Positions 33,912-57,569 of a DNA stretch of 64,000 nt are shown one piece after another. The stretch lies in NCBI RefSeq assembly GCF_004765795.1, contig NZ_SBIV01000009.1, positions 62,001 through 126,000 on the forward strand, in the 5' to 3' direction. Source of the DNA: Halorussus marinus (GTDB lineage Archaea > Halobacteriota > Halobacteria > Halobacteriales > Haladaptataceae). How positions within the stretch are numbered: position 1 is the first letter of the stretch; the number at the start of each line of letters is the position of its first letter. The notes under the pieces were generated by a model, which was given only the letters and a program-made list of their open reading frames with translations, ran no database searches and had not been told where the DNA came from. Both the position numbers and the translations under genes were made by a program.

Positions 33912-33930
33912 CTTTGTTATGTGGCGTCTG
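33912..33930 (-). promoter_or_regulatory. Glycan-island motif CAGACG-N4-ATAACAAAG
   Basis: CAGACGCCACATAACAAAG, pointing toward the PGF-CTERM gene. Confidence 0.7.
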
Positions 33931-34059
33931 AACGCGCGGTAGGCGTCGGTTGAACGACGTCCTCGCCCGCGACTCTCGGGGAGTCTCGTCGAACCGAATC
34001 GGCGGCGGTCGCCGAGATCGGTCGCGTCGGTCCGGCCGTACCCGGCGCCTACCGGCCGA

Positions 34060-34078
34060 CAGACGGGAGATAACAAAG
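34060..34078 (+). promoter_or_regulatory. Glycan-island motif
   Basis: CAGACGGGAGATAACAAAG, upstream of the DUF1616 gene. Confidence 0.7.
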
Positions 34079-34165
34079 TACCGGTCGCCCGATACTCCGG
34101 GCGATGAGTCGCCGACACGTCGCTCGCGAGCACCGGACGACAGCCGTCCCGCGGTGGCCCGCGCC

Positions 34166-35182
34166 ATGAGCCTCGAAACCAGCGACGGCACGCTGGTCGA
34201 TCGACTCGCGCGGCCGGGCGCGCCGGTCGATCTGATCGCCGTCGTCGGCTACCTCGCTGTCGCGGTCCTCGTGGTCTTTCGGCCCGGAGTGTACGGGACG
34301 CCGATAGCGACCGCGCTCGGGCTCCCGGCGCTTCTGTTCGCGCCCGGCTACGCGCTCGTCTCGCTGCTGTTCCCCGGAGCGACGCCCGACGACGCGGCCG
34401 GCGGCCGAGCGCTCGACGCCGTCCGGTCGGACGGGCTCGGTGGCGGCGAGCGCGCGGCGCTCGGGTTCGGGATCAGTCTGGCGTTTCTCCCGGCGTTCGG
34501 GCTCGCGCTCGCGGCGTCGCCGTGGGCAATCGCGCCGGTCCCGGTCCTGGTCGGGGCGAGCGGGTTCGCGGTCGCCTGCTCGATCGGGGCGGCGATCCGG
34601 CGGCTTCGCCGGCCGGCCGACCGCCGGTTCTCGGTGCCGGTCCGAGGGTTGCTCGCGGACGCCCGGCGCGCGGTCCGGGACGGGTCGGTCGGGGAGGTCG
34701 CGCTCGACGTGGCGCTGGCCGGCGCGGTCGTTATCGCGGTCGCCGCGGTCGGGTACGCGGTCGCCGCGCCCGGCCCCGGTCAGTCGTACACCGACGCCTA
34801 CCTGCTCTCGCAGAACGAGACCGGCCAGCTCGTCGCCGACGACTACCCGCGGAACTTCACCAGCGGCGAGAGCCGACCAATCGTCGTCGGCCTCGACAAC
34901 CACGAGGGCGCCGAGACCGACTACACGGTGGTGGTCGAACTCCAGCGAGTCCAGCAGGCCGACGACGGGGGCGCCCGAGTCGTCCAGGATCGCCGGCTCG
35001 CGGCGTTCACGCCGACCGTCGCGGACGGGGAGACGTGGCGTGTCCGCCACGACGTCACGCCGACGATGACCGGCGATGATCTCCGGCTCGCGTATCTCGT
35101 CTACCGCGGGGCGCCCCCGGAGGACCCGTCCACCGAGAGCGCGTACGAACACGTCCACGTCTGGGTGAACGTCTCGGCGTGA
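34166..35182 (+). CDS. DUF1616 family membrane protein
   Basis: LFAPGYALVSLLFP, ERAALGFGIS, YTDAYLL...DYP and NHEG..TDYTVVV motifs. Confidence 0.85.
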   Translation: MSLETSDGTLVDRLARPGAPVDLIAVVGYLAVAVLVVFRPGVYGTPIATALGLPALLFAPGYALVSLLFPGATPDDAAGGRALDAVRSDGLGGGERAALGFGISLAFLPAFGLALAASPWAIAPVPVLVGASGFAVACSIGAAIRRLRRPADRRFSVPVRGLLADARRAVRDGSVGEVALDVALAGAVVIAVAAVGYAVAAPGPGQSYTDAYLLSQNETGQLVADDYPRNFTSGESRPIVVGLDNHEGAETDYTVVVELQRVQQADDGGARVVQDRRLAAFTPTVADGETWRVRHDVTPTMTGDDLRLAYLVYRGAPPEDPSTESAYEHVHVWVNVSA

Positions 35183-35211
35183 TCGACCGCATGCGGAGCC
35201 ACGACTGATCC

Positions 35212-35790
35212 ATGTGGCCGTGGGAACACCTCGCTGTCGGCTACCTCGCGTACTCGTTGAGCTGTCACCTGCGCGGCGACGGCGCCCCCGGCGGCTGGCC
35301 CGCGGTCGCGCTCGCGGTCGGGACCCAGTTTCCGGATCTGCTCGACAAGCCGCTGTCGTGGTCGCTCGGGGTGGTCGCGAGCGGCCAGTCGGTGGCCCAC
35401 TCGGTGCTACTCGCGGTCCCGGTCTCGGCGCTCGCGATCGGCGCGGCCACCGGGGTCGGGCGGCGCCGCGTCGGGGAGGGGTTCGCGGTCGGATACCTCA
35501 GCCATCTCCCGAGCGACGTCTTCTACCCGCTGGTCCGCGGCGCTCGACCGAACGTCGACGCCGTGCTCTGGCCGCTGGCGAGCGCGCCCGCCGGGGAGGC
35601 CAACGCGGGCCTGCTCGCCACCGCCCGGCGGCTGTTCGACCGGTACGCGGGCGAACTGCTCGCCGGCGAGCCGACGCCCTACCTCGCAGTCGAACTCGGC
35701 TTGCTGGTCGGGGTAGTCGCGCTGTGGGTGTACGACGGGATGCCACCGGTCGGCGCGCTGGTGGCGAACGCGACCGAAGACGCCGCCTAG
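35212..35790 (+). CDS. Membrane-bound metal-dependent hydrolase (YdjM-like)
   Basis: MWPWEH, GTQFPDLLDKPL, AHS and SHLPSD motifs. Confidence 0.85.
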   Translation: MWPWEHLAVGYLAYSLSCHLRGDGAPGGWPAVALAVGTQFPDLLDKPLSWSLGVVASGQSVAHSVLLAVPVSALAIGAATGVGRRRVGEGFAVGYLSHLPSDVFYPLVRGARPNVDAVLWPLASAPAGEANAGLLATARRLFDRYAGELLAGEPTPYLAVELGLLVGVVALWVYDGMPPVGALVANATEDAA

Positions 35791-35796
35791 GATCGT

Positions 35797-35815
35797 CAGG
35801 ACGGTCATAACAATG
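35797..35815 (+). promoter_or_regulatory. Glycan-island motif (variant)
   Basis: CAGGACGGTCATAACAATG; the ATAAC box begins 33 nt before GTG 35840. Confidence 0.6.
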
Positions 35816-35839
35816 TGTTCGTCCGGCAAACGTCCGGGC

Positions 35840-37249
35840 GTGACAGAGGACGACCGTCGGCTGAACAGACGCGCGTATCTGCGGGCGCTCGGCGCGACCG
35901 GAGCGGCCGGGGCGTTGGCCGGCTGTGGCGGTCTCGACGCCGATCCGGACGGCACCGCGACCGAGACGACCGGTCGGACCCCGACCGGCGGCGAGCCGGC
36001 CGAGGCCCCAGCCCGGGAGAACGCGACGACCGAGGCGACCGACCGCTTCGAGACGGTGGTGAACGTCGCGGACGAGGGGGCCGACACCGCCGGCGAGGAG
36101 CGCGTCGACGACCTGCTCGCGGAGCTGGCGGCCGACGATACGATGCTTTACTTCCCGGCCGGACGCTACCGGCTCGGAAAGTGGAACCTCAGCGGTCACC
36201 GAAACATCGGCGTCGTCGGCGACGACGCGACCTTCGTCCCGCCAGCGGGCAAACAGGACTACTGGCTGGCGTGGGGCCAACTCGAGGACCTCCTTTTCGA
36301 GGGGTTCGCGCTCGATTGCACCGCCGACGGGGTCGCCCCGGTCAACCACATCTCGGTGACCGGCGGCCAGAGCGCGGTCCGGGACGTGGCGCTCCGGGGC
36401 CACCGACGAGTCCCCCGGAGCGGCTTCGAGATCGCGGCCGCCGACCCGGACGCCGAACTCCTGTTCGAGGACGTCCGGCTCCCCGACGGCTCGACCGCGG
36501 GCAACGCCATCTACACCTTTCCGAAGAGCGTCGGCCGCCTGAGGATCCGGAACTGCCGGGTCGAAGACTGGGCAGAGGGGCTGTACGCCTCGCCCCACTC
36601 GGGACCCCTCGAAATCGTCGGGGGCCACTACGCCAACAACGGTATCGACCAGGTCCGGGTCGGCGGCGGCCCGTCGGGCGCGACGGTCCGGGACGTGACC
36701 GTCCGAGTCGACGACCCCGAGCACGCCGACAGCAAGCCGAACATGCGGGGCATCTGGATGGAGGAGGGCGGCCGGGTCCGGATCGAGAACTGCGACATCG
36801 CCATCACCGATCTGACGGGCACGTACAGCTCCGGGGCGATCGTCGTCGGCCAGCAGTTCGGGGCGGCGACCATCGCCGACACGACGATCCGGACCGACGC
36901 CGACGCGCCGGCGATCAGCGTCCGAAACCCGATCGACTCGATCGAGGGCCAGACGATGCCGAGCATGGACCGGCTCCCCGAGGACTGGCGGGTGGAGTGT
37001 CGGAACGTCACCGTCACGGGGTCGGTCGGCTCGGGCACCGCGATCCGGGCGGTCGATCGAGACGACTGCGTCTTCGAGAACATCTGTGTCAGCCACCCCG
37101 AGGGGAGCCGGGACGGCGTGCTCGTCGAGAGCGCCGAGGGGTGTGCGGTCCGGAACGCGACGATCGCGGTCGGCGGCGACGCCGTCGTCGGCGAGGACGC
37201 GACCGTCGAAACCACCGCCGTCCGGACGGACGGCTCCTGTGGCGACTAG
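35840..37249 (+). CDS. Tat-exported lipoprotein with a right-handed parallel beta-helix (pectin-lyase-like)
   Basis: RRAYL plus LAGC lipobox; LYFPAGRY and repeated IRNC/VRDV/IENC beta-helix strands. Confidence 0.8.
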   Translation: MTEDDRRLNRRAYLRALGATGAAGALAGCGGLDADPDGTATETTGRTPTGGEPAEAPARENATTEATDRFETVVNVADEGADTAGEERVDDLLAELAADDTMLYFPAGRYRLGKWNLSGHRNIGVVGDDATFVPPAGKQDYWLAWGQLEDLLFEGFALDCTADGVAPVNHISVTGGQSAVRDVALRGHRRVPRSGFEIAAADPDAELLFEDVRLPDGSTAGNAIYTFPKSVGRLRIRNCRVEDWAEGLYASPHSGPLEIVGGHYANNGIDQVRVGGGPSGATVRDVTVRVDDPEHADSKPNMRGIWMEEGGRVRIENCDIAITDLTGTYSSGAIVVGQQFGAATIADTTIRTDADAPAISVRNPIDSIEGQTMPSMDRLPEDWRVECRNVTVTGSVGSGTAIRAVDRDDCVFENICVSHPEGSRDGVLVESAEGCAVRNATIAVGGDAVVGEDATVETTAVRTDGSCGD

Positions 37250-38877
37250 ATGTAGCCGAGGTCCGCGAGCCGATCCTCGACCGCGCCGTCGTCGCCGTCC
37301 CCGACGGCGGCGGTCCCGAACGCCACGTCGCCGTAGTCGGCCCGCGTGACCGCCCGGTCGAGCAGGCCGTCTGGCACCCCGCCCGACATCCGGTCGGGCA
37401 CGTCCCGTCCGGCCGACGCGAGCGCGATCGGCGCGACGTCGGTCAGCGAGAGGACGTCGAGGTCCGTCCCGGCGTCGAACGCGGGTCCGTCGGCGACGAA
37501 CACGCCCCGGGGCTTGTGGTCGTGGGCGTCGATCGGCGCGAACCGCTCGCCGATGAGGTTGGGGTTCACGACGTGGTTCATCTCGGTCGGCATGAACAGC
37601 ACGTCGCAGGCCCGGTCGGCGTACGGTCCGTCGTACACCGCCTCCCGGCGCCGGACCCACTCAAACACCGGGTCGCCGTCGGGCGTCCGGAGCGACGCCA
37701 GCAGTTCCACGAGATCCTCGCGGACCTGTTCGTACTCGTCGGGCGACACGACGCCGCCGGGGTCCCGGCCCGCGACGTTCACCCGGACGCCCAGTTCCGT
37801 GCTCCGGCAGTAGGCCGCCGACGCCCGCCTGTCGACCCCCTCGCTCGCGGCCGAGACCGCGCCGTCGGGGAGCAGATCGAGCAAGAGGTCGTCGATCCCG
37901 GCCCGCCGCGCGAGTGCGTAGGCGTCCCCGGGCGTGAGTCCGACGGCCCCGAGCGCGCTCGTCAGCGCCGAGACCGCGTTCGCGGCGAGGGGCGACCCGT
38001 CGTCGTCGGTCGCGTCGTCCTCGCCGGTGAGCGTCGACTTCTCGCTCGCGAGGCTCGGGCCGGTCTCGTCGTCGGTCGTCTCCACGTAGCCGGCCTCGCG
38101 GAGGATCTCGTTGAGATAGACGTCGTAGCCGTCGACCCGACCGATGCCGTGGTCCGAACAGACCACGACGTTGGCGCCCGGGGCGGCGTCCCTGACCCGT
38201 CCGAGCACCTCGTCGGCGGCCTCGTAGATCTCCCGGAAGGTCTCGCGGTCGTCGAAGTTGTGGAAGACGGCGTCGGTCTTCTGGACCTGAATCACCGCGA
38301 CCCGCCAGTCGTACGATTCGAGGAGGTACTCGGCGGCCCGGCCGCGGACCTCGATCGCGTCGAGGTAGCCCCGGCGCTTCTGGGCCTTGTCGTCGCTGGT
38401 CTCGCCCGACGAGTAGATCCGGTAGGGCTCGCCGATCGCCGCCGAGAGCTCGTCGCGAACGCTCGCCGGATGGCCCGGATCGTCTTCGTGGGCCAGATAC
38501 CCCGGGATCAGCGCTCCCTCGATCGGTTCGGCGGGGTGGGTGACCGGGACGTTCAACACGACCGCCGGCTCGCCGGTCGCCGAGAGGTAGTTCCAGATCG
38601 CCGGGCGCCGGACGTGGTTGCGGGTGACCAGCTCGTCGTCGCCCGGATCGTCGCCGGGGCTGAAAAAGCCGTAGACGCCGTGGCGGCTCGGATCGGTGCC
38701 GGTGTACATCGACGGCCACGCGCTCGCGGTCCACGGCGGGAACGTCGAGGCCAGCGGCGCTTGTACGCCCGACTCGCGTAGCGACGCGAAGTTGGGGAGC
38801 GATTCGTCGAACGCATCGAGGTACTCGAAGTCGAGGGCGTCGAAGCCCACGACCACGGTTTTGTTCTCGGCTGTCAT
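37246..38877 (-). CDS. Alkaline phosphatase superfamily (NPP-type) protein, paralog 1
   Basis: GFDAL, PPWTASAWPSMYTG, SDHG and HDHK motifs; C-terminal RLADLGY. Confidence 0.88.
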   Translation of the reverse strand: MTAENKTVVVGFDALDFEYLDAFDESLPNFASLRESGVQAPLASTFPPWTASAWPSMYTGTDPSRHGVYGFFSPGDDPGDDELVTRNHVRRPAIWNYLSATGEPAVVLNVPVTHPAEPIEGALIPGYLAHEDDPGHPASVRDELSAAIGEPYRIYSSGETSDDKAQKRRGYLDAIEVRGRAAEYLLESYDWRVAVIQVQKTDAVFHNFDDRETFREIYEAADEVLGRVRDAAPGANVVVCSDHGIGRVDGYDVYLNEILREAGYVETTDDETGPSLASEKSTLTGEDDATDDDGSPLAANAVSALTSALGAVGLTPGDAYALARRAGIDDLLLDLLPDGAVSAASEGVDRRASAAYCRSTELGVRVNVAGRDPGGVVSPDEYEQVREDLVELLASLRTPDGDPVFEWVRRREAVYDGPYADRACDVLFMPTEMNHVVNPNLIGERFAPIDAHDHKPRGVFVADGPAFDAGTDLDVLSLTDVAPIALASAGRDVPDRMSGGVPDGLLDRAVTRADYGDVAFGTAAVGDGDDGAVEDRLADLGYI

Positions 38878-39152
38878 TGTCGTCTCCGCGCGGTCTCCGG
38901 GACCGCCCGCTCGTCAGATCGAGACGACGCCGGCCACCATTGTTCTCTGGAGCTTAGGTAACCGACAGCACCGGACTAAATCGCCTGCGGTCAGGCACCG
39001 CCTGTGGGAGCGCGCCGGCGCCGAACGCGGCGCCTGAACCAGCCGACGGTCGGCGATGGGAGCGCCTGACCGGTCGCAGACGCCGCGAGAACGGAGTTAC
39101 GAGGACGCTGAGCCCGAGAACAGCGGTCGGTTAAACCGGCGATGGCGCAGGC

Positions 39153-40172
39153 TTACCGGAGCCGCTTGTAGACGCTCGACAGCGCGTTCGTGACCCGCGT
39201 GCCGCGTTCGAGGCTGTAGTACGACCGGAGCTCCGGGCCGAACTTCGCCTTGTACTCACACAGCCGGCGCTCGTTGGCGCCGACCAGATCGTAGCGCTCG
39301 ACCCCGCGGTCGATCGCGTCCGAGACGATGGCCCAGTCGACCAGATCGTTGACCGGCAGGTCCCGATCGTGTTTCGCGCCGCCCTGCCACCGGTAGACGG
39401 TGTCGTCGAACTCCAGCGCGACCATCCCGCCCGCGATCTCGCCGTCGACCTCGCAGGCGTAGGGGCGGACCGTCCCGTCCGGGAGTCGGTCGTAGAGGTC
39501 GGTGACGAACTCGGGCGTGACGCCGTAGGCCTCGTCCTGGTCGGCGTGGCGCTGGGCGACCTGCGAGATGACGGCCTCGATCTCGTCGTGGCCGCCCTCG
39601 TAGACGCGGTAGTCGCCATCGGTCCGGATGTTGTTCCGGGCGTCTCGCGAGAACGACATCAACACGTCGTCCTCGCCGGGCGTGAGGTCCACCTCGTAGG
39701 TGTGGCGGACGTCGACGTCGAACTCGGACCACTCGAACGGCCGCACGTCCCGGTAGGCCGGATCCGACCGGATTTGGACGTACTTGGGGCCGAGTTCGCG
39801 CTCGATCCAGTTGAGACAGCCGTCGACGAACAGCCGGTTTCGCCGCTCGGCCTTCCGGCGCTTGAGCTTGGCCTGATTCAGGAGAGTCGGGCCCAGATAC
39901 GACACCCACAGCCCCGGCGGCGGCGAGAACGCCATCGTCATCCCGCCCTTGCGGAGCTCGAACACCGGGAAGAGCCCGACCGGCTCTTGGCCCTTGTACC
40001 CGACCAGCGGGTGGAGTTCGGCGCCGGCCCGATCGGCCTGGACTTCCAGTGACTCACGGTAATGAAAGACGTTCGCTTCGGGCGACCGTTCGACGAGATC
40101 GTTCCACCGCCGCCAGTCGCCGTCGTCGGCCCGACTGACCGAGATGCCGCGTTTCTGTATCGTCGTGCTCAT
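39153..40172 (-). CDS. FemABX-like GNAT (aminoacyl/acyl transferase)
   Basis: SFSRDARNNIR, YRWQGG and YDLVGAN...YKAKFG motifs. Confidence 0.8.
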   Translation of the reverse strand: MSTTIQKRGISVSRADDGDWRRWNDLVERSPEANVFHYRESLEVQADRAGAELHPLVGYKGQEPVGLFPVFELRKGGMTMAFSPPPGLWVSYLGPTLLNQAKLKRRKAERRNRLFVDGCLNWIERELGPKYVQIRSDPAYRDVRPFEWSEFDVDVRHTYEVDLTPGEDDVLMSFSRDARNNIRTDGDYRVYEGGHDEIEAVISQVAQRHADQDEAYGVTPEFVTDLYDRLPDGTVRPYACEVDGEIAGGMVALEFDDTVYRWQGGAKHDRDLPVNDLVDWAIVSDAIDRGVERYDLVGANERRLCEYKAKFGPELRSYYSLERGTRVTNALSSVYKRLR

Positions 40173-40173
40173 G

Positions 40174-41805
40174 TTATTCGATGTACCCCAGATCCGCGAG
40201 TCGCGCTTCGACGTCGCCGTCGTCCGTTGCCACCTGCGCGTCCGGGTCGAACGCCGGATACGCCCGGGTGCCGACCGGCTCGACCGCCGGGAGCGCGGAC
40301 CCGTCCATCCTGTCGCCGGCGGGGATTCCCAGCGTCGCCAGCACCGTCGGCGCCACGTCGAAGAGGTGTGCGCCCGAGAGGTCGGCGTCCGCGTCGACGC
40401 CCGCCCCCGCCATCGCGATCACCCCTTCGCGCTTGTGGTTGTACGGTTCGGAGGGCGGCCCGAACTGGCCGTCGCCCACCCGCGTCGAGAGGAACTCGTC
40501 GAACTCCCGCGGGACCGTCACCACGTCGGGCGCCGCCTCGACGTACGGCCCGGAGAACACCTCCTCGCGGCGCGCGACCCGCTCGAACGCCGGCCGGCCG
40601 TCGGGGGTCTCGACCGCCGACAGCATCGCGATCAGGTCCTCGCGCACTCGCTCGTAATCGCCGGGCGCGACGACGCCGTCGGGTTCGCGGCCCCGCAGGT
40701 TCACCCGGACGCCGAGTTCGATCCGGTCGCGCATGTACGCGACCGACTCGGCGAAGTCGACCCGTTCGGCGGCCGCCCGCGCCACGTCGTTCGGGACGCG
40801 CTCGGCGACGAAGTCGGCGAGCCCCACCGCGTCGAGTCCGGCGCGGATGCGCTGGCTGGTGATGCCGACCGCCGCACCCGCGGCGAGCGCCCGCCCGAGC
40901 GGGGAGAGACTGTCGGCGGCGTCCCTGCTCTCTTTGCCTTCCCGGAGCTGGTTCGACGCGATGGTCGACCACGTCGGCATCCCCTCGCCGTCGGCGGTGG
41001 TCTCGACGAGCCCCTGCTCGCGGAGGAATTCGTTGACTCGGAACTCGCTCCCGCGGTACTCGCCCATGCCGTGGTCGCTCGCTACCACGACGGTGTCCGG
41101 ATCGCACTGGTCGAGGATCGCGCCGACCTGCTCGTCGACCGCCTCGTAGACCGCCCGGACGGCCTCGTCGTCGCCTGGCCGCTCGTGGAAGACGGTGTCG
41201 GTCTGCTGGAACTGGACGAACCCGAACGACGGGTCGAACCGATCGGCGAGGTACCGAAACGCCTCCCCGCGCATCTCGGTGAGTCGGCGGTACCACTCGA
41301 TCTGCTCGTCGCCCGACACGTCCCGGGGCGCGTACACTCGGTAATCGCCCATTTCCGCCCGGAGGTCGGCGAGGAGTCCGGCGGGGTGACAGTCCGGCTC
41401 CTCGGGCGCGGTGTATCCGGGGACGATCGCGCCGTCGATCTCGCGGGGCGGGTGTGTCACGGGCGCGTTCACGACCACGCTGGTGCGGTCGTTGCGGTCT
41501 AAGACCTCCCAGAGGGTCCGCTCGCGGACGTGGGTCGCGTTCACCACGTCCCAGTCGTAGCCGTCGAACGTCAGAAACCCGAACACGCCGTGCTTGCCGG
41601 GGTTGACGCCGGTGTACAGCGACGGCCACGCGCTCGGGGTCCACGGCGGGATCTGCGAGCGCAGTCCCCCCGCGGTCCCCTCGTCGAATATCGACTCCAG
41701 CCGCGGCACCGCGTCGGTCTCGAACAGCGGGTCGAGGACCCGACGACACCCCGCGTCGACCCCGACGAGCAGGGTCTCCAAGTTCGTCTCCGGGCGATCA
41801 GCCAT
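40174..41805 (-). CDS. Alkaline phosphatase superfamily (NPP-type) protein, paralog 2
   Basis: GVDAG, PPWTPSAWPSLYTG, SDHG and YNHK motifs; RLADLGY. Confidence 0.88.
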   Translation of the reverse strand: MADRPETNLETLLVGVDAGCRRVLDPLFETDAVPRLESIFDEGTAGGLRSQIPPWTPSAWPSLYTGVNPGKHGVFGFLTFDGYDWDVVNATHVRERTLWEVLDRNDRTSVVVNAPVTHPPREIDGAIVPGYTAPEEPDCHPAGLLADLRAEMGDYRVYAPRDVSGDEQIEWYRRLTEMRGEAFRYLADRFDPSFGFVQFQQTDTVFHERPGDDEAVRAVYEAVDEQVGAILDQCDPDTVVVASDHGMGEYRGSEFRVNEFLREQGLVETTADGEGMPTWSTIASNQLREGKESRDAADSLSPLGRALAAGAAVGITSQRIRAGLDAVGLADFVAERVPNDVARAAAERVDFAESVAYMRDRIELGVRVNLRGREPDGVVAPGDYERVREDLIAMLSAVETPDGRPAFERVARREEVFSGPYVEAAPDVVTVPREFDEFLSTRVGDGQFGPPSEPYNHKREGVIAMAGAGVDADADLSGAHLFDVAPTVLATLGIPAGDRMDGSALPAVEPVGTRAYPAFDPDAQVATDDGDVEARLADLGYIE

Positions 41806-41830
41806 GTATCGGATCCACCGCCCGTCCGTC

Positions 41831-41849
41831 CTTTGTTATGGGCCGTCTG
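41831..41849 (-). promoter_or_regulatory. Glycan-island motif
   Basis: CAGACGGCCCATAACAAAG; the box begins 34 nt before ATG 41805. Confidence 0.75.
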
Positions 41850-41959
41850 TCCCCCGACAAACCTGACCTGTCGGATCGTTCGGCGGTTATGCTTCCATTA
41901 CGGCCCCTCACTCGCTATTCAACGGAGTGTTTCGATTTCTCTCCCGGACCGTTCGGTAA

Positions 41960-42069
41960 ACGGCCACTACATTTAAATTGGTAAGCTAGTCTTGAATTGA
42001 AATCGGTACACTTTTGAATAGGTAACTTCCCATTGAGATACACATGGCACGCGATGATGCGGCACGCGA
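41960..42069 (+). promoter_or_regulatory. Duplicated tandem-promoter cassette, copy 1
   Basis: Two TTTRAA..GTAA-N7-TTGA units 41 bp apart, then ATGGCACGCGA; colinear with 43708-43817. Confidence 0.7.
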
Positions 42070-49229: not shown

Positions 49230-50617
49230 GCCTACAGGTCCACGGCCTCTACGGGAGCGAGGCGCCCGAGAGCGTCCAGCGGGCGGCGTTCCGGACCGGG
49301 CAAGTCCCGGTCGCGGTGTACGGCCTCGGGAAGATGGGGCTCCCGCTGGCGGCGGTGTACGCCGAGACGACCGGCAACGTCGTCGGCGCGGACGTCGATC
49401 CCGAGGTAGTCGAGGCGATCGACGCCGGGGAGTGTCACGTCGACCGCGAGCCCGGCCTGCCCGAGTTGGTCCGCGAGACCGTCGCGGCGGGGGCGCTCGA
49501 AGCGACCGACGATCCCCGAGAGGCGGCGGCTCGCGCCGCCGTCCACGTCGTCATCGTCCCGACCCCGATCACCGACGAGAAGGAGGCCGACCTCTCGATC
49601 CTGCGGTCGGTCGCCGGCGACATCGGCGCGAACCTCGACCCCGGCGACCTCGTGGTCGTCGAGTGCACGGTACCGCCCCGGACCTGCGAGGACCTCCTCC
49701 GGCCGTTGCTCGCCGACGCGGCGGGCCACGAGGCGTTCGGGCTCGCGTTCTGTCCCGAGCGCACCGCGAGCGGGCGCGCGCTCAGGGACATCCGGGGCGC
49801 CTACCCCAAGGTGGTCGGCGGGATCGACGACGAGAGCACCCGAGTCGCCGAACTCGTCTACGACCACATCACGGACAACGAGGTGCTCGCGGTCTCGGAC
49901 GCCACCACCGCGGAGGCGGTGAAGGTGTTCGAGGGCCTCTACCGCGACGTGAACATCGCACTGGCGAACGAGCTGGCGACGCTCACCGACGAGTTCGGGA
50001 TCGACGTCAACGAGGCGATCGCGACCGCCAACACCCAGCCGTTCTGCGACATCCACGACCCCGGACCGGGCGTCGGGGGCCACTGCATCCCCTACTACCC
50101 GTACTTCGTGATCAACGAGGTCGACGCCGACGCCCGACTGCTGTCGACCGCCCGCGAGGTCAACGACGCGATGCCGGCGTTCACCGTCGAGACGCTGGCT
50201 CGCGAACTCGACGCCGAGGGGACGAGTCCCGACGACGCGACCGTCGCGGTGCTGGGCCTGACCTACCGACCCGGCGTCGAGGAGATCCGGGCGACCCCGG
50301 CCGGCCCCATCGCCGAGCGGCTCTCGGCGCTCGGCGCCGAAGTCCTCGCGGTCGATCCGATGCTCGACGACGCCGAACCCTTCGAGGCCGAAATGGTATC
50401 GCGCGCGGAGCTTTACGGCGCCGATCTCGACGCCGCCGTGATGGTGACCCCCCACGAGGAGTTCGACGCCATCGAGTGGGAGCGGTTCGACCCGCTGGTC
50501 GTCGTCGACGGTCGCGGGAGCCTCGACCTCGCGGCCACCGACCACCGCGTCTACACCATCGGGAGCGGCCCGACGGGCGGACGCGACGCGGCGCTCTCCG
50601 AGGAGGTGGCCGAATGA
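49226..50617 (+). CDS. Nucleotide-sugar 6-dehydrogenase (WbpA/WecC-like)
   Basis: GLGKMG, FCPER, YRDVNIALANE and GVGGHCIP motifs; GTGA overlap. Confidence 0.92.
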   Translation: MSLQVHGLYGSEAPESVQRAAFRTGQVPVAVYGLGKMGLPLAAVYAETTGNVVGADVDPEVVEAIDAGECHVDREPGLPELVRETVAAGALEATDDPREAAARAAVHVVIVPTPITDEKEADLSILRSVAGDIGANLDPGDLVVVECTVPPRTCEDLLRPLLADAAGHEAFGLAFCPERTASGRALRDIRGAYPKVVGGIDDESTRVAELVYDHITDNEVLAVSDATTAEAVKVFEGLYRDVNIALANELATLTDEFGIDVNEAIATANTQPFCDIHDPGPGVGGHCIPYYPYFVINEVDADARLLSTAREVNDAMPAFTVETLARELDAEGTSPDDATVAVLGLTYRPGVEEIRATPAGPIAERLSALGAEVLAVDPMLDDAEPFEAEMVSRAELYGADLDAAVMVTPHEEFDAIEWERFDPLVVVDGRGSLDLAATDHRVYTIGSGPTGGRDAALSEEVAE

Positions 50618-51675
50618 AGGTCCTGACCGTGGTCGGGGCCCGACCGCAGTTCATCAAGGCCGCCGCGGTCTCGCGCGAGCTTCGCGAGCGCCACGAGGAG
50701 GTGCTGGTCCACACCGGCCAACACTACGACGAGGAGATGTCGGACGTGTTCTTCGAGGAACTGGGGATCCCGGAGCCCGACGCCAACCTCGGGGTCGGGT
50801 CCGACGACCACGGCGCCCAGACCGCCGAGATGCTGGTCGGGCTCGAAGACCTGATCGCCAGCGAGCGACCGGACGCGGTGCTCGTCTACGGCGACACCAA
50901 CTCCACGCTCGCGGCGGCGATCGCCGCCGCGAAGATGGACCCCGCGCTGGCGCACGTCGAGGCCGGGCTCCGGAGCTACAACCGCGAGATGCCCGAGGAG
51001 ATAAACCGGGTCCTGACCGACCACGCCGCAGACCGGCTGTTCGCGCCCTCCGCGCGTGCGGTCGAGAACCTCGCCGCCGAGGGCGTGACCGACGGGGTCC
51101 GGGACACCGGCGACGTGATGTACGACGCGGTGCTGTGGGCGCGCGACCGGGCGACCGACCGCTCTACGGTCCTCGACGATCTCGGAGTCGACCCCGGCGA
51201 GTACGTGCTTGCGACGGTCCACCGCGCGGCCAACACCGACGACCCCGACCGGCTCGCGGCCGTGCTCGACGCGCTGGCCGCCGACTCTCGCGAGGTGGTG
51301 TTCCCGGCCCACCCACGGACAGTAAACCGTATGCGCGAATACGGACTCTACGACGAGGCGCGCGACCGACTCACGCTCACCGATCCGGTGGGGTACCTCG
51401 ACTTCGTGCGCCTGCAGGACGCGGCGGCCGTCGTCGCGACCGACTCCGGGGGCGTCCAGAAGGAGGCGTTCTTCCTCGATACGCCCTGCGTGACGATGCG
51501 CGAGGAGACCGAGTGGCGCGAGACCGTCGCCGCGGGCTGGAACACCCTCGTGGGCGCCGACGGCGAGGCCATCAGCCGGGCGCTCGCGAGCGCCGACCCG
51601 CCGGCGGACAAGCCCCAGCCGTACGGCGACGGCACCGCCGCGGCGGCCATCGTCGACGGATTAGACGATGTCTGA
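50614..51675 (+). CDS. Non-hydrolysing UDP-N-acetylhexosamine 2-epimerase (WecB/WbpI-like)
   Basis: GARPQFIK, HTGQHYD, GDTNS, HVEAGLRS and TDSGGVQKEA motifs. Confidence 0.93.
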   Translation: MKVLTVVGARPQFIKAAAVSRELRERHEEVLVHTGQHYDEEMSDVFFEELGIPEPDANLGVGSDDHGAQTAEMLVGLEDLIASERPDAVLVYGDTNSTLAAAIAAAKMDPALAHVEAGLRSYNREMPEEINRVLTDHAADRLFAPSARAVENLAAEGVTDGVRDTGDVMYDAVLWARDRATDRSTVLDDLGVDPGEYVLATVHRAANTDDPDRLAAVLDALAADSREVVFPAHPRTVNRMREYGLYDEARDRLTLTDPVGYLDFVRLQDAAAVVATDSGGVQKEAFFLDTPCVTMREETEWRETVAAGWNTLVGADGEAISRALASADPPADKPQPYGDGTAAAAIVDGLDDV

Positions 51676-52699
51676 GCCGACGTCGGCGCCGATGCCCGGT
51701 GGCGCCGAGTTCGTCCTCCTGCTGACCCACGACGTCGACCGGCCGTACAAGTCGGTGCAGGCGCTCTATCACGCGGTCGAGCGCCGAGACCTGGGCCAGC
51801 TCCGGTCGCTTGTCCCCGGAACCAACCCGTGGTGGCAGTTCGAGGAGATCAGGGAGTTAGAGGCGTCGCTCGGGGTGCGGTCGGCGTTTTACTTCCTCCG
51901 GGAGAGACGCCTGCTCGAACGCGAGCCGAGCGACTGGCTCGATCCCTTCTACTGGATCGAGCACGTCGGACGCTACGATTTTACGGCCCCCGAGATGCGA
52001 GATCTCCTCGCCGAACTCGACGAGGGCGGCTGGGAGGTCGGCCTCCACGGCTCGTACGACTCCTACGACGACCCCGACCGGCTCCAGCGCGAGAAGGCGC
52101 TGCTGGAGGCGGCGCTGGGGGGGTCGGTCGCGGGCGGGCGCCAGCACCACCTGAACCGGGGGCCCGAGACGTGGCGCCATCACCGCGAGATCGGACTGCG
52201 ATACGACGCCACGCCGGGGTCGAGCACCGAGTACGGGTTCGAGCGGGGCTACGAACCGCTCCGGCCGTTCGACGACGAGTTCGTCGTGTTCCCGCTCACC
52301 CTGATGGAGGCCGCGCTCCCGGACCCCGGCGAACAGTTCGACCGGGCGTGGGCGGCGTGTGCGGATCTGCTCGCGGAAGCCGACGACAACGACGCCGTGA
52401 TGACGGTGCTGTGGCACCCGCGGCTGTTCACCGAGCGGGACTTCCCCGGCTACCGGTCGCTCTATCGGCGCCTCGTCGAGACCGCCCTCGAAATGGGCGC
52501 GTGGGTCGGCCCGCCGGGCGAGTACTACGAACTGCTCGACCACCCCGACGGATCGGCGTCCGGCGCCGAGTCCGACCGCCCGAACGGCGCGAACGCCGAC
52601 GACCGCGCGGGCCGCGGTGAGGGGCAGGGCGGCCCTACCTCGGGACAGGCGGGGGATAACAAAGTGAAAACCGCCGCTAATCGGGAGCCAACAGGATGA
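51668..52699 (+). CDS. Polysaccharide deacetylase family protein
   Basis: LTHDVD, EVGLHGS, GGRQHHL and VLWHP motifs; low-complexity C-terminal tail. Confidence 0.85.
   Translation: MSEPTSAPMPGGAEFVLLLTHDVDRPYKSVQALYHAVERRDLGQLRSLVPGTNPWWQFEEIRELEASLGVRSAFYFLRERRLLEREPSDWLDPFYWIEHVGRYDFTAPEMRDLLAELDEGGWEVGLHGSYDSYDDPDRLQREKALLEAALGGSVAGGRQHHLNRGPETWRHHREIGLRYDATPGSSTEYGFERGYEPLRPFDDEFVVFPLTLMEAALPDPGEQFDRAWAACADLLAEADDNDAVMTVLWHPRLFTERDFPGYRSLYRRLVETALEMGAWVGPPGEYYELLDHPDGSASGAESDRPNGANADDRAGRGEGQGGPTSGQAGDNKVKTAANREPTG
52646..52664 (+). promoter_or_regulatory. Glycan-island motif inside the deacetylase 3' end
   Basis: CAGGCGGGGGATAACAAAG; the box begins 40 nt before ATG 52696. Confidence 0.7.
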
Positions 52700-53778
52700 G
52701 AGTCGAGCAACTCGAACTGTCCGAGTGGGAGTCGGCGCTGCCGAGCGACGGCTTCGAGGTCTTCCACCTGCCCGAGGCCCTGACCGTGATCGAGCGCCAC
52801 ACCGACGCGGAGATGAAGCTGTTCGGCGGCTTCAAGGGCCAACAGCCCATCGCGCTGTTGCCCGCGTTCGTCCGCGAGCGGTCGGTCGGGACCGCCGTGA
52901 CGTCGCCGCCGCCGGGACTCGGCATCCCGCGGCTCGGCCCGATCATGATGCCCACCAGCCCGAAGCGGCGCAAGCAGGAGAAAGTCAACCAGGAGTTCAC
53001 CGAGAAGGTGCTCGCGCAGGTCGGCACCGACCTCGGGCTCGACGAGCGCCTCGCCGACGCGGGCGTCGAATCGCCGGTGGCCGAGTCGGTGCTCGATCGG
53101 CTCGACGTCGACTCGCGGCTGACGCTCTTCCGGATGATCTGTAACGCCGACTACGCGGACCCCCGGCCGTACGCGTGGGGGAGCCTCCGGGTCGAGCCCA
53201 ACTTCACGTACTTCCTCGATCTGAGCGGTCGAGACGCCGAGGCCGTCCGCAACTCCTTCTCGAAGAGCCTCCGGCGGGAGATCCGCGACGCCGAGGCGCT
53301 CGACGTGAGCGTCGACACCGAGGGGCTGGCGGGCGCTCGGGACGTGTTCCGGGCGACCCGGCGGCGGTACGCCGAGCAAGACGAGCCGTTCACCCAGTCG
53401 TGGGCGTACGTCCGGAGCCTCTTCGAGGCGCTTGACGACCGCGCGCGGGCGTACGTCGCCCGCGGTCCCGACGGCGAGTACCTCTCGGGGATCACCGCCC
53501 TCTACTCGAACGACGCGGCGTACTTCTGGCAGGGCGGCGCGAAGGCGATCTACGAGGGAACCGCGGTCAACAGCCTGATCCACTGGCGGCTCATCGAGGA
53601 TATCATCGAGGACCCGCCGGTCGAGTCGGTCGACACCTACGACCTGATGGGCGCGAACACCGAGCGGCTCTGTCGGTACAAGGCGAAGTTCGGCGCCGAC
53701 CTCGTCCCCTACTACGTGGTCGAGTCGTCGGGCGCGGCGATGGACGTCGCCAAACGGGCCTATCAGCTGGTCCAGTAA
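52696..53778 (+). CDS. FemABX-like GNAT, paralog 2
   Basis: SFSKSLRREIR, YFWQGG and YDLMGAN...YKAKFG motifs. Confidence 0.8.
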   Translation: MRVEQLELSEWESALPSDGFEVFHLPEALTVIERHTDAEMKLFGGFKGQQPIALLPAFVRERSVGTAVTSPPPGLGIPRLGPIMMPTSPKRRKQEKVNQEFTEKVLAQVGTDLGLDERLADAGVESPVAESVLDRLDVDSRLTLFRMICNADYADPRPYAWGSLRVEPNFTYFLDLSGRDAEAVRNSFSKSLRREIRDAEALDVSVDTEGLAGARDVFRATRRRYAEQDEPFTQSWAYVRSLFEALDDRARAYVARGPDGEYLSGITALYSNDAAYFWQGGAKAIYEGTAVNSLIHWRLIEDIIEDPPVESVDTYDLMGANTERLCRYKAKFGADLVPYYVVESSGAAMDVAKRAYQLVQ

Positions 53779-53845
53779 CGAACTCGACAGTCGCTCGCGA
53801 GCGTCCGTTTTCTCGCCGGCGCAGTTTCCGGCCGGAAGCGGCCGG

Positions 53846-54013
53846 CTACGCCATCTCGGCGATCTCGACGCCGGCGTCGGATTCGAGCCACGCGGCGTGG
53901 TTCCGGGTGTCGTAGACGACGACCCGGCCCTCGCCGTCGGTGAACGCGGCGTAGCGGTCGGTCTCGGGGCGGTTCTCCCGTCGGTCGTTCTCGCCGTCGT
54001 ACTTGGTGGTCAT
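53846..54013 (-). CDS. Small acidic protein (55 aa), absent from the ORF track
   Basis: Manual translation MTTKYDGENDRRENRPETDRYAAFTDGEGRVVVYDTRNHAAWLESDAGVEIAEMA*. Confidence 0.7.
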   Translation of the reverse strand: MTTKYDGENDRRENRPETDRYAAFTDGEGRVVVYDTRNHAAWLESDAGVEIAEMA

Positions 54014-54141
54014 TGGATTCGCTCGCTGTGTCCCCGTTAGTGGGTTTCTATGAGTAACTCAGGGTCGAGGACTGATAAGTATTAGCACGGTGTGGAAACT
54101 CGCCCCACTGCCGTGTCCGCTTTTCGGAGCCTATCGGTCTA

Positions 54142-54160
54142 CAGGCGCCCCATAACAAAG
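54142..54160 (+). promoter_or_regulatory. Glycan-island motif
   Basis: CAGGCGCCCCATAACAAAG; the box begins 50 nt before ATG 54202. Confidence 0.75.
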
Positions 54161-54201
54161 CCCCGAGACGGGCACGGTTCGACGTACCTACCGCTCTCAC
54201 C

Positions 54202-55995
54202 ATGGATTCGGACACCCACGCCTCCCGAACGCGGGAGAAAGTGACACTCCTCGTCGGTTTCGCGTCGCTCGCCGCGGCGGTGGCCATCGCCCACCGGTCG
54301 CCGCCGTCGGCGTACGAGCTGTCGATCTACGCCGGGACCCCGGCGGCGTTCTGGGTCGGTGCGGGCGCCGGTCTCGTCGCGTCGGTGTTCGTCTCGCTGA
54401 CCGGACGGGGCCGGCGTCGACGGCTCGGGCTGGTCCTCGGCGGAGTCACCGCGCTCGCGATCGCCTCGCTGCCCGTGATCCGGTCGTACCACTTCTACGG
54501 CGCCGGCGACTCGCTCACTCACCTCGGATGGGCGAAAGACATCGCGGCCGGCCGGCTCTCGGTACTGGAGTTTCTCTACCCCGGGGTCCACACGATCGCG
54601 GTGATGATCGGCGACGTGACCGGGATGGCGCTGTCGCGCGCGCTGCTCGTGACGGTGGTGGCGTTCACCGCGGTGTTCGTGGTCTTCGTCCCGCTCGCGA
54701 CGTGGGCGATGACCCGGGACCGCCGCGCCACCGCGGTCGCGGCCCTGTCGTCGTTTCTCTTCTTGCCCGTAAACAACCTCAGCGTCTTCGAGATGGCCCA
54801 TCCGACCTCTCAGGCCATCATGTTCCTGCCGCTGGTGCTGTATCTGCTTGCCCGGTACGTGACCCGCGCCGACCGCGGGGGCCTGCCGATCGGGACCCCG
54901 ACGGGCGTGCTCGCGGCGCTCGCGTCGGTCGCGATCCTGCTGGTCCACCCCCAGCAGGCCGCCAACGTGGTGGTCGTGTTCGGCGCGGTGCTCGGAATCC
55001 AGTTGCTCTCGCGGTGGCTCGGGACGCCGGCCGCCGACCACAAGCTTCTGGGCTTCCAGACCGCCTTCGTGGCGGCGGCGTTCCTGCTGTGGGCGCCCCG
55101 CCACGACCGAGCGTCGGGTGCCACCTCCTCGCTGGTCGAGATGCTACTGAGCGGATCCGAGATAGCCGGCGACGTCGGCGCGCAGGCGCTGTCGGTGTCT
55201 GCCATCGGCGGGAGCGTCGCGGTGCTCTTTCTGAAGCTCTTTCTGGTGAGTCTCGTGTTCGCCGCCCTCACCGCACTGCTGGTCTTCGACGGGCTCCGGG
55301 GCGGGCTCGAAGACCCCGACGCCAACGCCTTCGTCCGGTACTTCGGGGTCGGACTGATCCCGCTTCTGGGGCTTTTCGCGGCGTTCCTGCTCGTGAGCTA
55401 CGCCGGGCTCCACTTCCGCCAGCTCGGGTTCGTGATGGTGCTCGGGACGATACTGGGCGCGCTCGCGATCGCCCGGGCCATCGAAACGCTTTCGACCCGG
55501 TTCTCGGCGGGAACCGCGAGGGCCGCGGTCGGCGTGGTCTTCGTCGTGATGCTGGCGCTCTCGGTCCCGACGCTATATCAGTCTCCGTACATGTATCAGG
55601 GGTCGGGCCACGTCACGCAGGCCCAGATGACCGGCTACGAACACTCGTTCGAGTACGCCGGCGACCCGTCGTTCTTCGGAATCAGAGGCACCGGCGAGCG
55701 GTACGCGGACGGCACGCTCGGCTTCGAGGCGAGCCGAGAGCGTGCGCCCACCGCCGGGAGCCTCTACGCGAACACGAACGCCACCGGCGAGAACTTCACC
55801 GGATCGTACATCGCCGCCAACCTCGGGGAGCGGTACCTCGCGTTCACCGACGCGACGCGCCAACAGGACGTGGCGGTGTATCGCGAACTCCGGTTCTCGG
55901 CGGCGGGCTTCCGGTCGCTCGACGCCACGCCGGGGATCGACCGCGTGCGGGCCAACCCCGACGCACAGACGTACCTGATCAACGGGACGCGATAG
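54202..55995 (+). CDS. Polytopic membrane protein, possible GT-C-type transferase or polymerase
   Basis: Around 12 or more TM segments; GDSLTHLG loop motif and YPGVH; directly upstream of the flippase. Confidence 0.6.
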   Translation: MDSDTHASRTREKVTLLVGFASLAAAVAIAHRSPPSAYELSIYAGTPAAFWVGAGAGLVASVFVSLTGRGRRRRLGLVLGGVTALAIASLPVIRSYHFYGAGDSLTHLGWAKDIAAGRLSVLEFLYPGVHTIAVMIGDVTGMALSRALLVTVVAFTAVFVVFVPLATWAMTRDRRATAVAALSSFLFLPVNNLSVFEMAHPTSQAIMFLPLVLYLLARYVTRADRGGLPIGTPTGVLAALASVAILLVHPQQAANVVVVFGAVLGIQLLSRWLGTPAADHKLLGFQTAFVAAAFLLWAPRHDRASGATSSLVEMLLSGSEIAGDVGAQALSVSAIGGSVAVLFLKLFLVSLVFAALTALLVFDGLRGGLEDPDANAFVRYFGVGLIPLLGLFAAFLLVSYAGLHFRQLGFVMVLGTILGALAIARAIETLSTRFSAGTARAAVGVVFVVMLALSVPTLYQSPYMYQGSGHVTQAQMTGYEHSFEYAGDPSFFGIRGTGERYADGTLGFEASRERAPTAGSLYANTNATGENFTGSYIAANLGERYLAFTDATRQQDVAVYRELRFSAAGFRSLDATPGIDRVRANPDAQTYLINGTR

Positions 55996-55996
55996 G

Positions 55997-57463
55997 ATGG
56001 ACCTCAAACGCATCTCCCGCGGGCTCAAGGCGACGTTCGGCGCGCGAGTCATCTACATGGCCGCGAGCGGACTGTTGACGCTCGTTCTGACCCGGTTTCT
56101 CCTCTCTAACGAGCAGTACGGCCTGCTCGGCTCGGCGGTCGCGGTGCTCGGCGTCGCCCAGCTGTTCGGCGACCTCGGCATCGCCAAATCGGCCGCCAAG
56201 TACGTGACCGAGTACCGCGAGAAAGACCCCGGACAAGCGCCCCACGTCCTCCGGGCCGCGGTGGTCTTCCGACTCGCCGCGGCGGGGGTCGTCGCCGGCG
56301 CGTTCCTCGCGTTCGGCGGCCCCATCGCGTCGCTGGTCGGCCAGCCCGAGATCGAACCCCTGCTCGCGCTCGGGGCCGGCTACATCGTGGTCCACTCGCT
56401 TTTCACCTTCTCGCAGGTCGTCTTCCAGGGATACAACCGGGTGAGCTACAGCGCGCTCGTTCAGGCGACCGGCGCGGCCGCCCGGCTCGTGCTCGCGGTC
56501 GCGGGGGTCGTCCTCGTCGGCGGCGCGGTCGGCGCCATGGCCGGCTACGTCGCGGGGTACGGGCTCGCGGCCGCGCTCGGGCTCGGGCTCCTGTACGCCA
56601 AGTGTTACCGGGGCGTCGAGGCCACCGCCGACCCCGAGCCCGGACTCGTCGGTCGGATGCTCCGGTACAGCGTGCCCCTGACCGCGACCCGAGGCGCGAA
56701 CGTCCTCGACAAGCGGGTCGACACCATCCTGGTCGGATACTTCATGACGCCGGTGGCGGTCGGCTACTACTACCTCGCCAAACAGATCGTCGGGTTCGTC
56801 CAGACCCCGGCGGCGTCGCTCGGATTTACGCTCTCGCCGACCTACGGCGAGGAGAAGGCCAACGGCGACACCGACCGGGCGGCCCGACTCTACGAGACCG
56901 CCCTCGAACACACGCTTTTGTTCTACGTGCCGGCCGCGGCCGGCATCGTGCTGGTCGCCGAGCCCGCGATCAGGCTGGTGTTCGGCGAAAGCTACGTCGG
57001 AGCGGCGCCCGTGCTCCAGGTGTTCTCTGGGTACGTCGTCCTCCAGGCGGTCGCGTTCATCACCAGCGACGCGCTCGATTTCCTCGGGCGGGCCCGGTCG
57101 CGGGCCTACGCGAAGGGGCTGACCTCGGTCGGGAACTTCCTGCTCAACCTCGTTCTCATCCCGGCGTACGGCGTCGCGGGCGCGGCGGCCGCGACGGTCG
57201 TGACGTTCGCGGGCTACACCGCGGTCAACGTCTGGGTCATCCACAGCGAGCTGTCGCTGTCGGTCGGCCGGCTCGTCCGCCACCTCGCGGCGACCGTCGG
57301 GGTCGCGGCCGCGATGTCGGTCGCGGTGGCGCTCGTGTTGACCGCCACGACGGGCGCGTTCGCGGTGGTCGCCGCGATCGCACTCGGAGTCGCGGTCTGG
57401 GCGGGGCTGTCGGTCGCCGGCGGGCTGGTCGATCCCGGACGGGTCACCGCCATCCTCTCGTGA
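55997..57463 (+). CDS. Polysaccharide flippase (Wzx/MOP family)
   Basis: QYGLL, DLGI..SAAKY, DTILVGYF..VGYY and LNLVLIPAYGVAGAA motifs. Confidence 0.9.
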   Translation: MDLKRISRGLKATFGARVIYMAASGLLTLVLTRFLLSNEQYGLLGSAVAVLGVAQLFGDLGIAKSAAKYVTEYREKDPGQAPHVLRAAVVFRLAAAGVVAGAFLAFGGPIASLVGQPEIEPLLALGAGYIVVHSLFTFSQVVFQGYNRVSYSALVQATGAAARLVLAVAGVVLVGGAVGAMAGYVAGYGLAAALGLGLLYAKCYRGVEATADPEPGLVGRMLRYSVPLTATRGANVLDKRVDTILVGYFMTPVAVGYYYLAKQIVGFVQTPAASLGFTLSPTYGEEKANGDTDRAARLYETALEHTLLFYVPAAAGIVLVAEPAIRLVFGESYVGAAPVLQVFSGYVVLQAVAFITSDALDFLGRARSRAYAKGLTSVGNFLLNLVLIPAYGVAGAAAATVVTFAGYTAVNVWVIHSELSLSVGRLVRHLAATVGVAAAMSVAVALVLTATTGAFAVVAAIALGVAVWAGLSVAGGLVDPGRVTAILS

Positions 57464-57550
57464 GTCGACCGAGCCCCACACCGCCCGAGCCGACGGTCGG
57501 GTCGGCGGTACGCCCCGCGTAAATCCCCGCAGAACGCGCGTACGGCCCCG

Positions 57551-57569
57551 AAGACGGGCCATAACAAAG
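57551..57569 (+). promoter_or_regulatory. Glycan-island motif
   Basis: AAGACGGGCCATAACAAAG; the box begins 66 nt before ATG 57627. Confidence 0.72.

Follow-up and report, generated by a model that had tools for sequence, protein, structure and literature searches.

Surface-polymer island of the window

The 64,000-nucleotide (nt) window of Halorussus marinus analysed here (contig NZ_SBIV01000009.1), whose numbering is used throughout, is haloarchaeal and carries a surface-polymer island at 31.5–60.2 kilobases (kb), as identified by profile scans of gene calls. The calls were made with a custom codon-model script, which missed some small genes. The genes of the island are headed by nine copies of an oriented motif with the nine-nucleotide core ATAACAAAG, which are referred to below as class promoters (Table 1). 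The single regulator gene seen in the island (45518-46078) belongs to the family DUF7344.

The initial annotation of this DNA described the motif as CAGRCG-N4-ATAACAAAG (R, purine; N, any nucleotide). The coordinates and strands of its nine copies are correct, as are the distances of 33, 34, 40, 50, 66, 96, 121, 150 and 155 nt between core and start codon. The pattern describes seven of the nine copies with at most one mismatch, and fails for the copies at 35797 and 46191, which have three and four mismatches, respectively; both nevertheless score well on a fuller model of the motif, with 16.6 and 26.2 bits. When up to two mismatches are allowed, the pattern has seven matches in the window, five of them exact and two with one mismatch, compared with a chance mean of 0.01 (100 shuffles). 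The first 31 kb, which had been read by eye as free of the motif, contain no site above 9 bits in the model scan. A putative weak tenth copy at 38938 scores 9.2 bits, which is the background level: a cut-off of 9 bits gives 264 matches in the genome and 305 in the reversed control. A further look-alike of background strength (9.3 bits) is located at 31470-31478(-), before a gene of 62 amino acids (aa) just to the left of the island. Divergent gaps with the motif had been counted as two, both with one copy per direction; there are four, and those between 41805 and 42044 and between 54013 and 54202 carry the motif in a single direction.

The island genes at 42044-43558(+), 43979-44203(+) and 53846-54013(-) have no class promoter. 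The secreted-looking protein of 504 aa encoded among them, which has no Pfam match, is preceded by an AT-rich region with ordinary TATA-like boxes.

Table 1 Features of the window and loci of the structured RNA family (L handles denote loci with local coordinates; scores are from the fuller motif model)
Feature	Position	Strand	Description	Score (bits)
Surface-polymer island	31549..60179	.	Nucleotide-sugar synthesis, flippase, GNAT, phosphodiesterase-family modifiers, PKD and beta-helix surface proteins; nine promoters	
Class promoter	33887..33953	-	Core 33912-33920, phased steps reaching up to 33953; predicted start 33887; PKD surface protein 31549-33765	28.0
Class promoter	34037..34103	+	Core 34070-34078, predicted start 34103; DUF1616 gene 34166-35182, probably YdjM gene behind	31.7
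Class promoter, variant core (T for third-last A)	35774..35840	+	Core 35807-35815; predicted start is the GTG of the beta-helix protein 35840-37249 (leaderless)	16.6
Class promoter	41806..41872	-	Core 41831-41839, predicted start 41806; ATG of phosphodiesterase-family gene 40174-41805 1 nt downstream; GNAT gene next	27.9
Class promoter, core with initial G	46166..46232	-	Core 46191-46199, predicted start 46166; DUF7344 regulator, probably phosphohexomutase gene	26.2
Class promoter	46352..46418	+	Core 46385-46393, predicted start 46418; nucleotide-sugar operon 46535-52699 (acyltransferase, DegT, oxidoreductase, UDP-sugar dehydrogenase, 2-epimerase, deacetylase-like)	29.6
Class promoter in 3' end of preceding gene	52623..52689	+	Core 52656-52664, predicted start 52689; GNAT gene 52696-53778	29.4
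Class promoter	54119..54185	+	Core 54152-54160, predicted start 54185; membrane protein 54202-55995, flippase 55997-57463	25.9
Class promoter	57528..57594	+	Core 57561-57569, predicted start 57594; phosphodiesterase-family gene 57627-59216, NAD-dependent epimerase	20.3
Doubtful weak site	38913..38979	-	Core 38938-38946, before phosphodiesterase-family gene 37246-38877; background	9.2
DUF7344 protein, 186 aa	45518..46078	-	Winged helix-turn-helix (residues 9-100) and two predicted membrane helices; LYQ-type recognition helix; candidate reader, itself a target	
Structured RNA family, four copies in two genera	L027:2590-2725, L032:2477-2600, L212:1343-1476, L219:1343-1476	-, +, -, -		

Genome-wide distribution and target genes

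No 9-mer is more strongly over-represented in the upstream regions of the genome than the core, of which 29 copies are seen and 0.4 expected. Its 39 copies genome-wide are the highest number among its 504 permutations (median of 3), and 43 sites score above 20 bits on the fuller model, compared with five in the reversed genome. The orientation towards genes reported for the island holds in the whole-genome scan: the core is nearly always outside genes and points at one (37 of the 39 copies lie outside called genes). Other over-represented upstream words are CCCTTGCAA/TTGCAAGGG (nine seen, 0.3 expected), pieces of TTTCACTTTCAC, and GGTTCAAATC.

The initial annotation treated the motif as that of a glycan-island regulon defined by CAGRCG. 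A regulon restricted to the island is rejected, because only seven of the 39 core copies are in the window and most are outside the island. The exact CAGRCG 19-mer is private to the island, which contains five of its five exact copies; it is not a required half of the motif, because sites selected on the core alone share just a pyrimidine (Y) followed by A at positions -10/-9 from the core. Among the 39 core-selected sites, A is present at -9 in 35, Y at -10 in 34, and A or T at +22 in 33, and weaker TA steps occur at -21/-20 and -31/-30.

Profile scans of 36 downstream proteins identified three large PKD proteins, a malectin protein, an FG-GAP/TSP3 protein, a type IV pilin, two GT2 enzymes, GlmS, a TatD-like protein, an N-terminal fragment of MCM, DUF378 and DUF1328 proteins, small zinc-finger-like proteins, and the products of four DUF7344 genes; 11 of the 36 have no Pfam match. 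It is likely that a separate promoter class switches on, together, about 40 genes for surface polymers, adhesion and regulation.

The gene L036:1638-2372(-), leaderless behind a class promoter, encodes a 244-aa protein corresponding to the N-terminal part of the MCM helicase only; one guess is that the fragment could interfere with replication once the programme is on. A divergent pair of class promoters at L034:1-2390 (start of G000:C8) serves glmS and a nucleotidyltransferase-like gene truncated by the contig end. The glmS locus probably supplies amino sugars to the island.

Position of the core relative to the predicted transcription start

Canonical TTTAT/TTTAA boxes begin 30 nt before the ATGs of leaderless genes in this genome. 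Start triplets are found at positions +33 to +35 from the first A of the core in 14 cases among the genome's own 34 sites; windows of three nucleotides farther downstream have 3.3 on average, and those on the opposite side of the core 0.8. The pooled set of 105 sites from seven genomes comprises 30 sites of this genome, 27 of one same-family genome, and 48 of five genomes from four other families; for the latter, 60 of 81 matches were fetched, of which 48 have Y at -10. ATG peaks at +33, +34 and +35 in the pooled set, with 9, 6 and 11 cases. In the 71 sites without ATG or GTG at +33 to +35, a pyrimidine-purine step is present at +32/+33 in 41 (58%), compared with 14–46% at other positions, and W (A or T) occurs at +22 and +23 in 82% and 75%, respectively.

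The published haloarchaeal core promoter is composed of a transcription factor B (TFB) recognition element (BRE) CGAAA, a TATA box TTWT, and WW at -10 (PMC4983044; this and other published sources are cited to the extent of their accessible text). If transcription starts at +33, the +32/+33 step of the class sites is the initiator and the W residues at +22/+23 are the -10 WW element. The spacing of the WW element, initiator and leaderless starts, together with the 5' ends of the small RNAs described below, therefore places the core at -33 to -25 relative to the predicted start, where it replaces the TATA box. Class sites read ACAAAG at -30 to -25, where the TTWT/TTWWW box normally sits, and TTWT is absent. 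A core-promoter function, raised in the initial annotation, is thus supported by the WW at -11/-10, the initiator step and the leaderless starts, all of which fit a start at +33 from the core's first A. It is very probable that ATAACAAAG defines a second core-promoter class of haloarchaea, with a predicted start at +33. The class box has C for the canonical T at -29, from which we infer that it binds the TATA-binding protein (TBP) too weakly to fire alone.

The pentamer RTAAC also peaks at -36 of leaderless genes genome-wide (13 cases), often with a normal T-rich box after it. Canonical promoters may use it as a BRE, at a position 3 nt farther upstream than in class promoters.

Phased track upstream of the core

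Peaks of A/T content are located at approximately -10, -20, -31, -41, -52, -63 and -74 from the core in 109 sites, a set that includes orthologues and is hence non-independent. The period of A/T dinucleotides over these sites is 10.5 base pairs (bp), and none of 500 rotated controls is equally strong; the part from -78 to -36 alone is also periodic (10.6 bp). No comparable phased track is present in 363 canonical promoters. Relative to the predicted start, the YA step is at -43/-42 and the TA steps are near -54 and -64, at fixed distance. The track suggests either a protein bound to one face of the DNA over several turns or wrapped DNA.

Small RNAs behind class promoters

Two class sites of this genome and two of the genome G024 lack an open reading frame (ORF) and are instead followed by a structured RNA of approximately 135 nt that has no annotation, with the similarity among the loci beginning exactly at +33. 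The RNA has a 5' hairpin, a long stem, and an invariant C-rich single-stranded stretch near its 3' end. Six of the 32 predicted pairs are changed on both sides and are thus compensatory. An Rfam scan of three loci with ORF-less sites gave no matches. At L048 (G000:C2:466608, +), a variant class promoter is followed by an ORF-less, internally repeated and foldable stretch of approximately 100 nt, which is possibly a second small RNA.

Conservation and expression in related haloarchaea

The motif is present in all 24 of 24 genomes from the same family, in 15–34 copies compared with 0–5 for controls. It is rarer in other families, where its last position is A or C. Orthologous islands with class sites are located on pHV4 of Haloferax volcanii, pHTUR04 of Haloterrigena turkmenica, and pHH400 of Haloarcula hispanica. 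The class site of the pHV4 acyltransferase gene is 151 nt before the start codon, compared with 150 nt in this genome. HVO_A0216-A0221 and A0594-0595 have been described as putative exopolysaccharide operons (PMC4180959). The orthologous glycan island of pHV4 is interrupted by a type I-B CRISPR-Cas locus that lies inside it (L139:12955-22617).

A start at +33 is the sequence-based prediction for the target genes. The start map of Hfx. volcanii contains 4749 starts from mid-exponential growth; its supplementary table was searched by terms, and the chromosomal sites of this species were assessed through that table only. Three rows have ATAACAAA within 70 nt upstream, and an internal start of HVO_1838 has the core 33 nt upstream by hand count. 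Among the matched rows of a four-condition transcript table, there is no coding transcript for A0215-A0224 (PMC6490895). The tables of a study of the regulator CsmR give small normalised counts, 1–2 for A0597 and 7–22 for A0217, taken on their own; the baseMean of A0217 is 180–407, and the gene is therefore not fully silent (PMC13286277).

DUF7344 proteins as candidate readers

The product of the island regulator gene 45518-46078 matches the DUF7344 profile (PF24035) with 113 bits, against a cut-off of 27.8. Its predicted structure (predicted local distance difference test score of 87.8) contains a helix-turn-helix with a wing and two C-terminal hydrophobic helices. Weak fold matches are to the ArsR-family proteins SrnR, YodB and BigR (E-values 0.02–0.08), and the ArsR/SmtB family profile gives 19.5 bits, below its cut-off of 55. 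Sequence searches of the PDB with DUF7344 returned nothing meaningful, and an Atlas search returned DUF7344 clusters only.

The genome encodes 29 DUF7344 genes, and the motif precedes three of the eight membrane-anchored ones and two short ones. In a quick tree of 72 membrane-anchored DUF7344 proteins, from which seven loci without a called ORF were left out, nine of the ten motif-bearing genes belong to one clade of 22 (Shimodaira–Hasegawa-like approximate likelihood ratio test support of 98). The residues L-Y-Q are found in the recognition helix of 21 of the 22 clade members and in none of the 50 others. The corresponding codon pattern (LYQ) is present in 30 of 30 same-family genomes and 155 of 220 others. 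Among the non-family genomes, a motif excess of at least four over control occurs in 74 of the 155 that are LYQ-positive, compared with none of the 65 that are LYQ-negative, and 13 of 14 within-genus LYQ contrasts agree with the motif. The number of non-LYQ paralogues does not follow that of motif copies (rho 0.15, 80 genomes). As a control for island passengers, 11 LYQ-negative genomes contain DUF1616, and ten of them have a motif excess of at most three. In the LYQ-negative genus g9, seven island loci retain island genes and show no class promoter.

A reader role for all membrane-anchored DUF7344 proteins is rejected, because genus g8 has two to eight of them with little or no motif excess. 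A private promoter motif of the non-LYQ clades was not seen; the 7-mers that they share most often resemble normal TATA boxes or similarity between orthologues. DUF7344 proteins with two or three tandem domains also exist (P0001, P0004, P0009 and P0032), some with membrane segments, and their architecture suggests that tandem domains would suit the binding of tandem half-sites.

The LYQ-type DUF7344 protein is the best candidate for the reader of class promoters. Given a core promoter with a start at +33, the balance of the sequence evidence tips slightly towards it being an activating reader.

Proposed mechanism and alternative explanations

The best overall explanation, to which we assign a probability of roughly 0.47, is that class promoters are a second type of core promoter activated by oligomers of LYQ-type DUF7344 proteins. 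A membrane-anchored oligomer would bind TA half-sites phased at 10.5 bp, as far as the ATAAC in the core, and would recruit the ordinary machinery of the single TBP and a TFB. The box would be too poor to fire alone, which would keep the programme off until the regulator is activated, and an envelope or dormancy signal may be the trigger. Because several LYQ genes carry class promoters themselves, activation would be self-reinforcing through positive feedback and would commit the cell to producing surface polysaccharide, adhesins and small stress proteins. A role in dormancy or biofilms is a guess from the target list; in the accessible part of a paper on haloarchaeal spores, no link to the motif system was found (PMC10067837).

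Several observations weigh against this explanation. ArsR-like folds are mostly those of repressors. None of the 4749 starts of the exponential-growth map lies behind the class promoters of pHV4 and pHV3, and the pHV4 start 202704 sits 1 nt upstream of a core, which is a misfit to the model. The genome G044, a draft of about 20 contigs that is 99% complete, keeps approximately ten strong island sites and has no LYQ gene detectable by pattern or profile. A second motif pattern gives an excess of 4–6 in four of 28 LYQ-negative genomes, 81 of the 155 LYQ-positive genomes have no clear motif excess, and the motif is absent upstream of 13 of the 22 members of the clade. The LYQ clade was delimited after inspection of the tree, genome size also tracks the motif count (rho 0.57), and related genomes are non-independent, with the g9 contrast representing one lineage. 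Furthermore, because LYQ genes are both targets and passengers of the island, their co-occurrence with the motif is expected even if they have no reader role.

The same promoter class could depend on another activator, with LYQ-type DUF7344 proteins as second-tier regulators within the regulon. The strong sites of G044 fit this arrangement, as does the presence of the motif before short DUF7344, PadR-like and TrmB-like genes (by eye) and a TFB gene in G088, and co-occurrence is unable to separate a reader from a target. However, the island of the window contains no second DNA-binding gene, the motif-bearing DUF7344 genes share one type of recognition helix, and the island marker DUF1616 occurs in the LYQ-negative genomes with little motif excess (at most three in ten of 11), which makes another activator unlikely. 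Alternatively, the phased array might be an operator, on which a repressor polymer of DUF7344 or another protein would cover -78 to -25 and silence a weak promoter until released. The quietness of the island in laboratory cultures of Hfx. volcanii, the resemblance of the fold to ArsR-family proteins, and the mapped start 1 nt upstream of a core, as expected for an operator behind the start, agree with repression. Nevertheless, repression is quite improbable, since there is no canonical TATA box at -30 to de-repress, the initiator and WW element keep fixed distances from the core, at +33 and +22/23, and the start codons of matching genes are rarely less than 33 nt from the core.

The position of the element at that of BRE/TATA led the initial annotation to propose a dedicated TBP/TFB pair, and a paralogue of one or both could read the variant box in the manner of TFB2/TfbB at hsp5. 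Paralogue-specific promoter use has been published (PMC2396416), a TFB gene lies behind a class promoter in G088 (L141:1624-2595(+)), and another is beside the island DUF7344 gene on pHTUR04 (L092:18230-19186(-)). However, these two linked TFBs are sporadic, unrelated duplicates within a standard clade. A dedicated TBP is excluded, since 12 of the 23 genomes of the same family encode just one TBP and contain 22–34 motif copies. Nothing in this genome points to a dedicated TFB: none of its eight chromosomal TFB-family genes has an upstream motif, and six of the seven full-length ones keep the usual recognition helix. From its geometry, a TFB is not expected to reach the steps at -43 to -108, and hsp5 itself has a typical TATA box (PMC2396416). 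Reading by such a paralogue is very unlikely. The 10.5-bp TA track could also be a wrapping signal for a gating chromatin protein, such as the histone HstA/HpyA or an Lrp-like oligomer. Its period and its length of at least eight turns resemble such a signal, and regions bound by HpyA and HstA have periodicities of 10.4 bp and 11 bp, respectively (PMC10128011). However, the HstA peaks are few (32), not enriched at promoters, and have a different motif, and the histone is described as conserved through the order (PMC10128011), whereas the class motif is patchy and follows LYQ genes. Wrapping does not explain the invariant 9-mer, and a chromatin gate is highly improbable.

Activation by LYQ-type DUF7344 oligomers also has a bolder version, which we consider doubtful, in which the membrane-tethered protein would read the core itself in place of TATA/BRE recognition and act as a sigma-like switch of a cryptic developmental programme. 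If this were the case, the programme would comprise surface polymer, adhesins, stress proteins, the MCM fragment and the small RNA, for example those of a walled dormant or biofilm cell, and could be woken in Hfx. volcanii through expression of HVO_A0597.

Significance and comparison with known systems

To our knowledge, Archaea have no sigma factors. Programme-wide switching in Archaea is usually explained by TBP/TFB paralogues or by activators beside a normal TATA box. Full-text literature searches found no description of the motif or of DUF7344, although logo-only figures, subscription papers and unseen supplements could escape them. The class promoters constitute a sharply defined, TATA-less class of core promoters that is common to several haloarchaeal families and present in the genetic model Hfx. 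volcanii, where they head putative exopolysaccharide operons without mapped starts in standard culture. They yield a list of targets with their predicted starts and, for the large uncharacterised family DUF7344, a candidate regulator, all testable with the tools available for Hfx. volcanii, and may supply a tight inducible promoter.

Half-sites spaced one turn apart and running into the core promoter are a feature of bacterial ToxR/TcpP-type membrane winged-helix activators and of OxyR/LysR tandem boxes. The resemblance of class promoters to these systems is an analogy only: the polymerase context is bacterial, and no sequence relation is shown. Among archaeal systems, the promoters of activator-dependent type (GvpE/ArnR/EarA) share with class promoters an upstream site at a fixed distance, but class promoters lack the recognisable BRE/TATA downstream of it. 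GvpE-dependent gas-vesicle promoters likewise carry a two-part element at constant spacing to the core and often occur in divergent pairs; however, their upstream activating sequence consists of two 8-nt parts upstream of BRE, whereas the class element is the core itself and has tens of targets genome-wide (PMC2241852). ArnR and ArnR1 of Sulfolobus acidocaldarius, compared here by description, are membrane-bound, oligomer-forming activators of surface-structure genes, but they belong to another lineage, and their promoters are not reported to be TATA-less in the accessible text (PMC6396743).

The hsp5 promoter with TFB2/TfbB provides a precedent for sigma-like regulation encoded in core elements; however, it has a typical TATA box and requires no upstream sequence (PMC2396416), whereas the class motif has no dedicated TBP and, in this genome, no sign of a dedicated TFB. 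CsmR of Hfx. volcanii resembles the candidate DUF7344 reader as a haloarchaeal winged-helix protein that regulates surface genes from a site close to the promoter, but it has other targets and its site is the palindrome TATCA-N4-TGATA upstream of a normal BRE/TATA (PMC13286277). The class motif is identical to neither the CsmR nor the HstA motif, as the sequences differ (PMC13286277, PMC10128011). Class promoters share WW at -11/-10, the pyrimidine-purine start, many leaderless messenger RNAs and A at -33 with the canonical haloarchaeal promoter, and differ from it in having ACAAAG in place of TTWT, a near-invariant 9-mer, and a phased upstream track.

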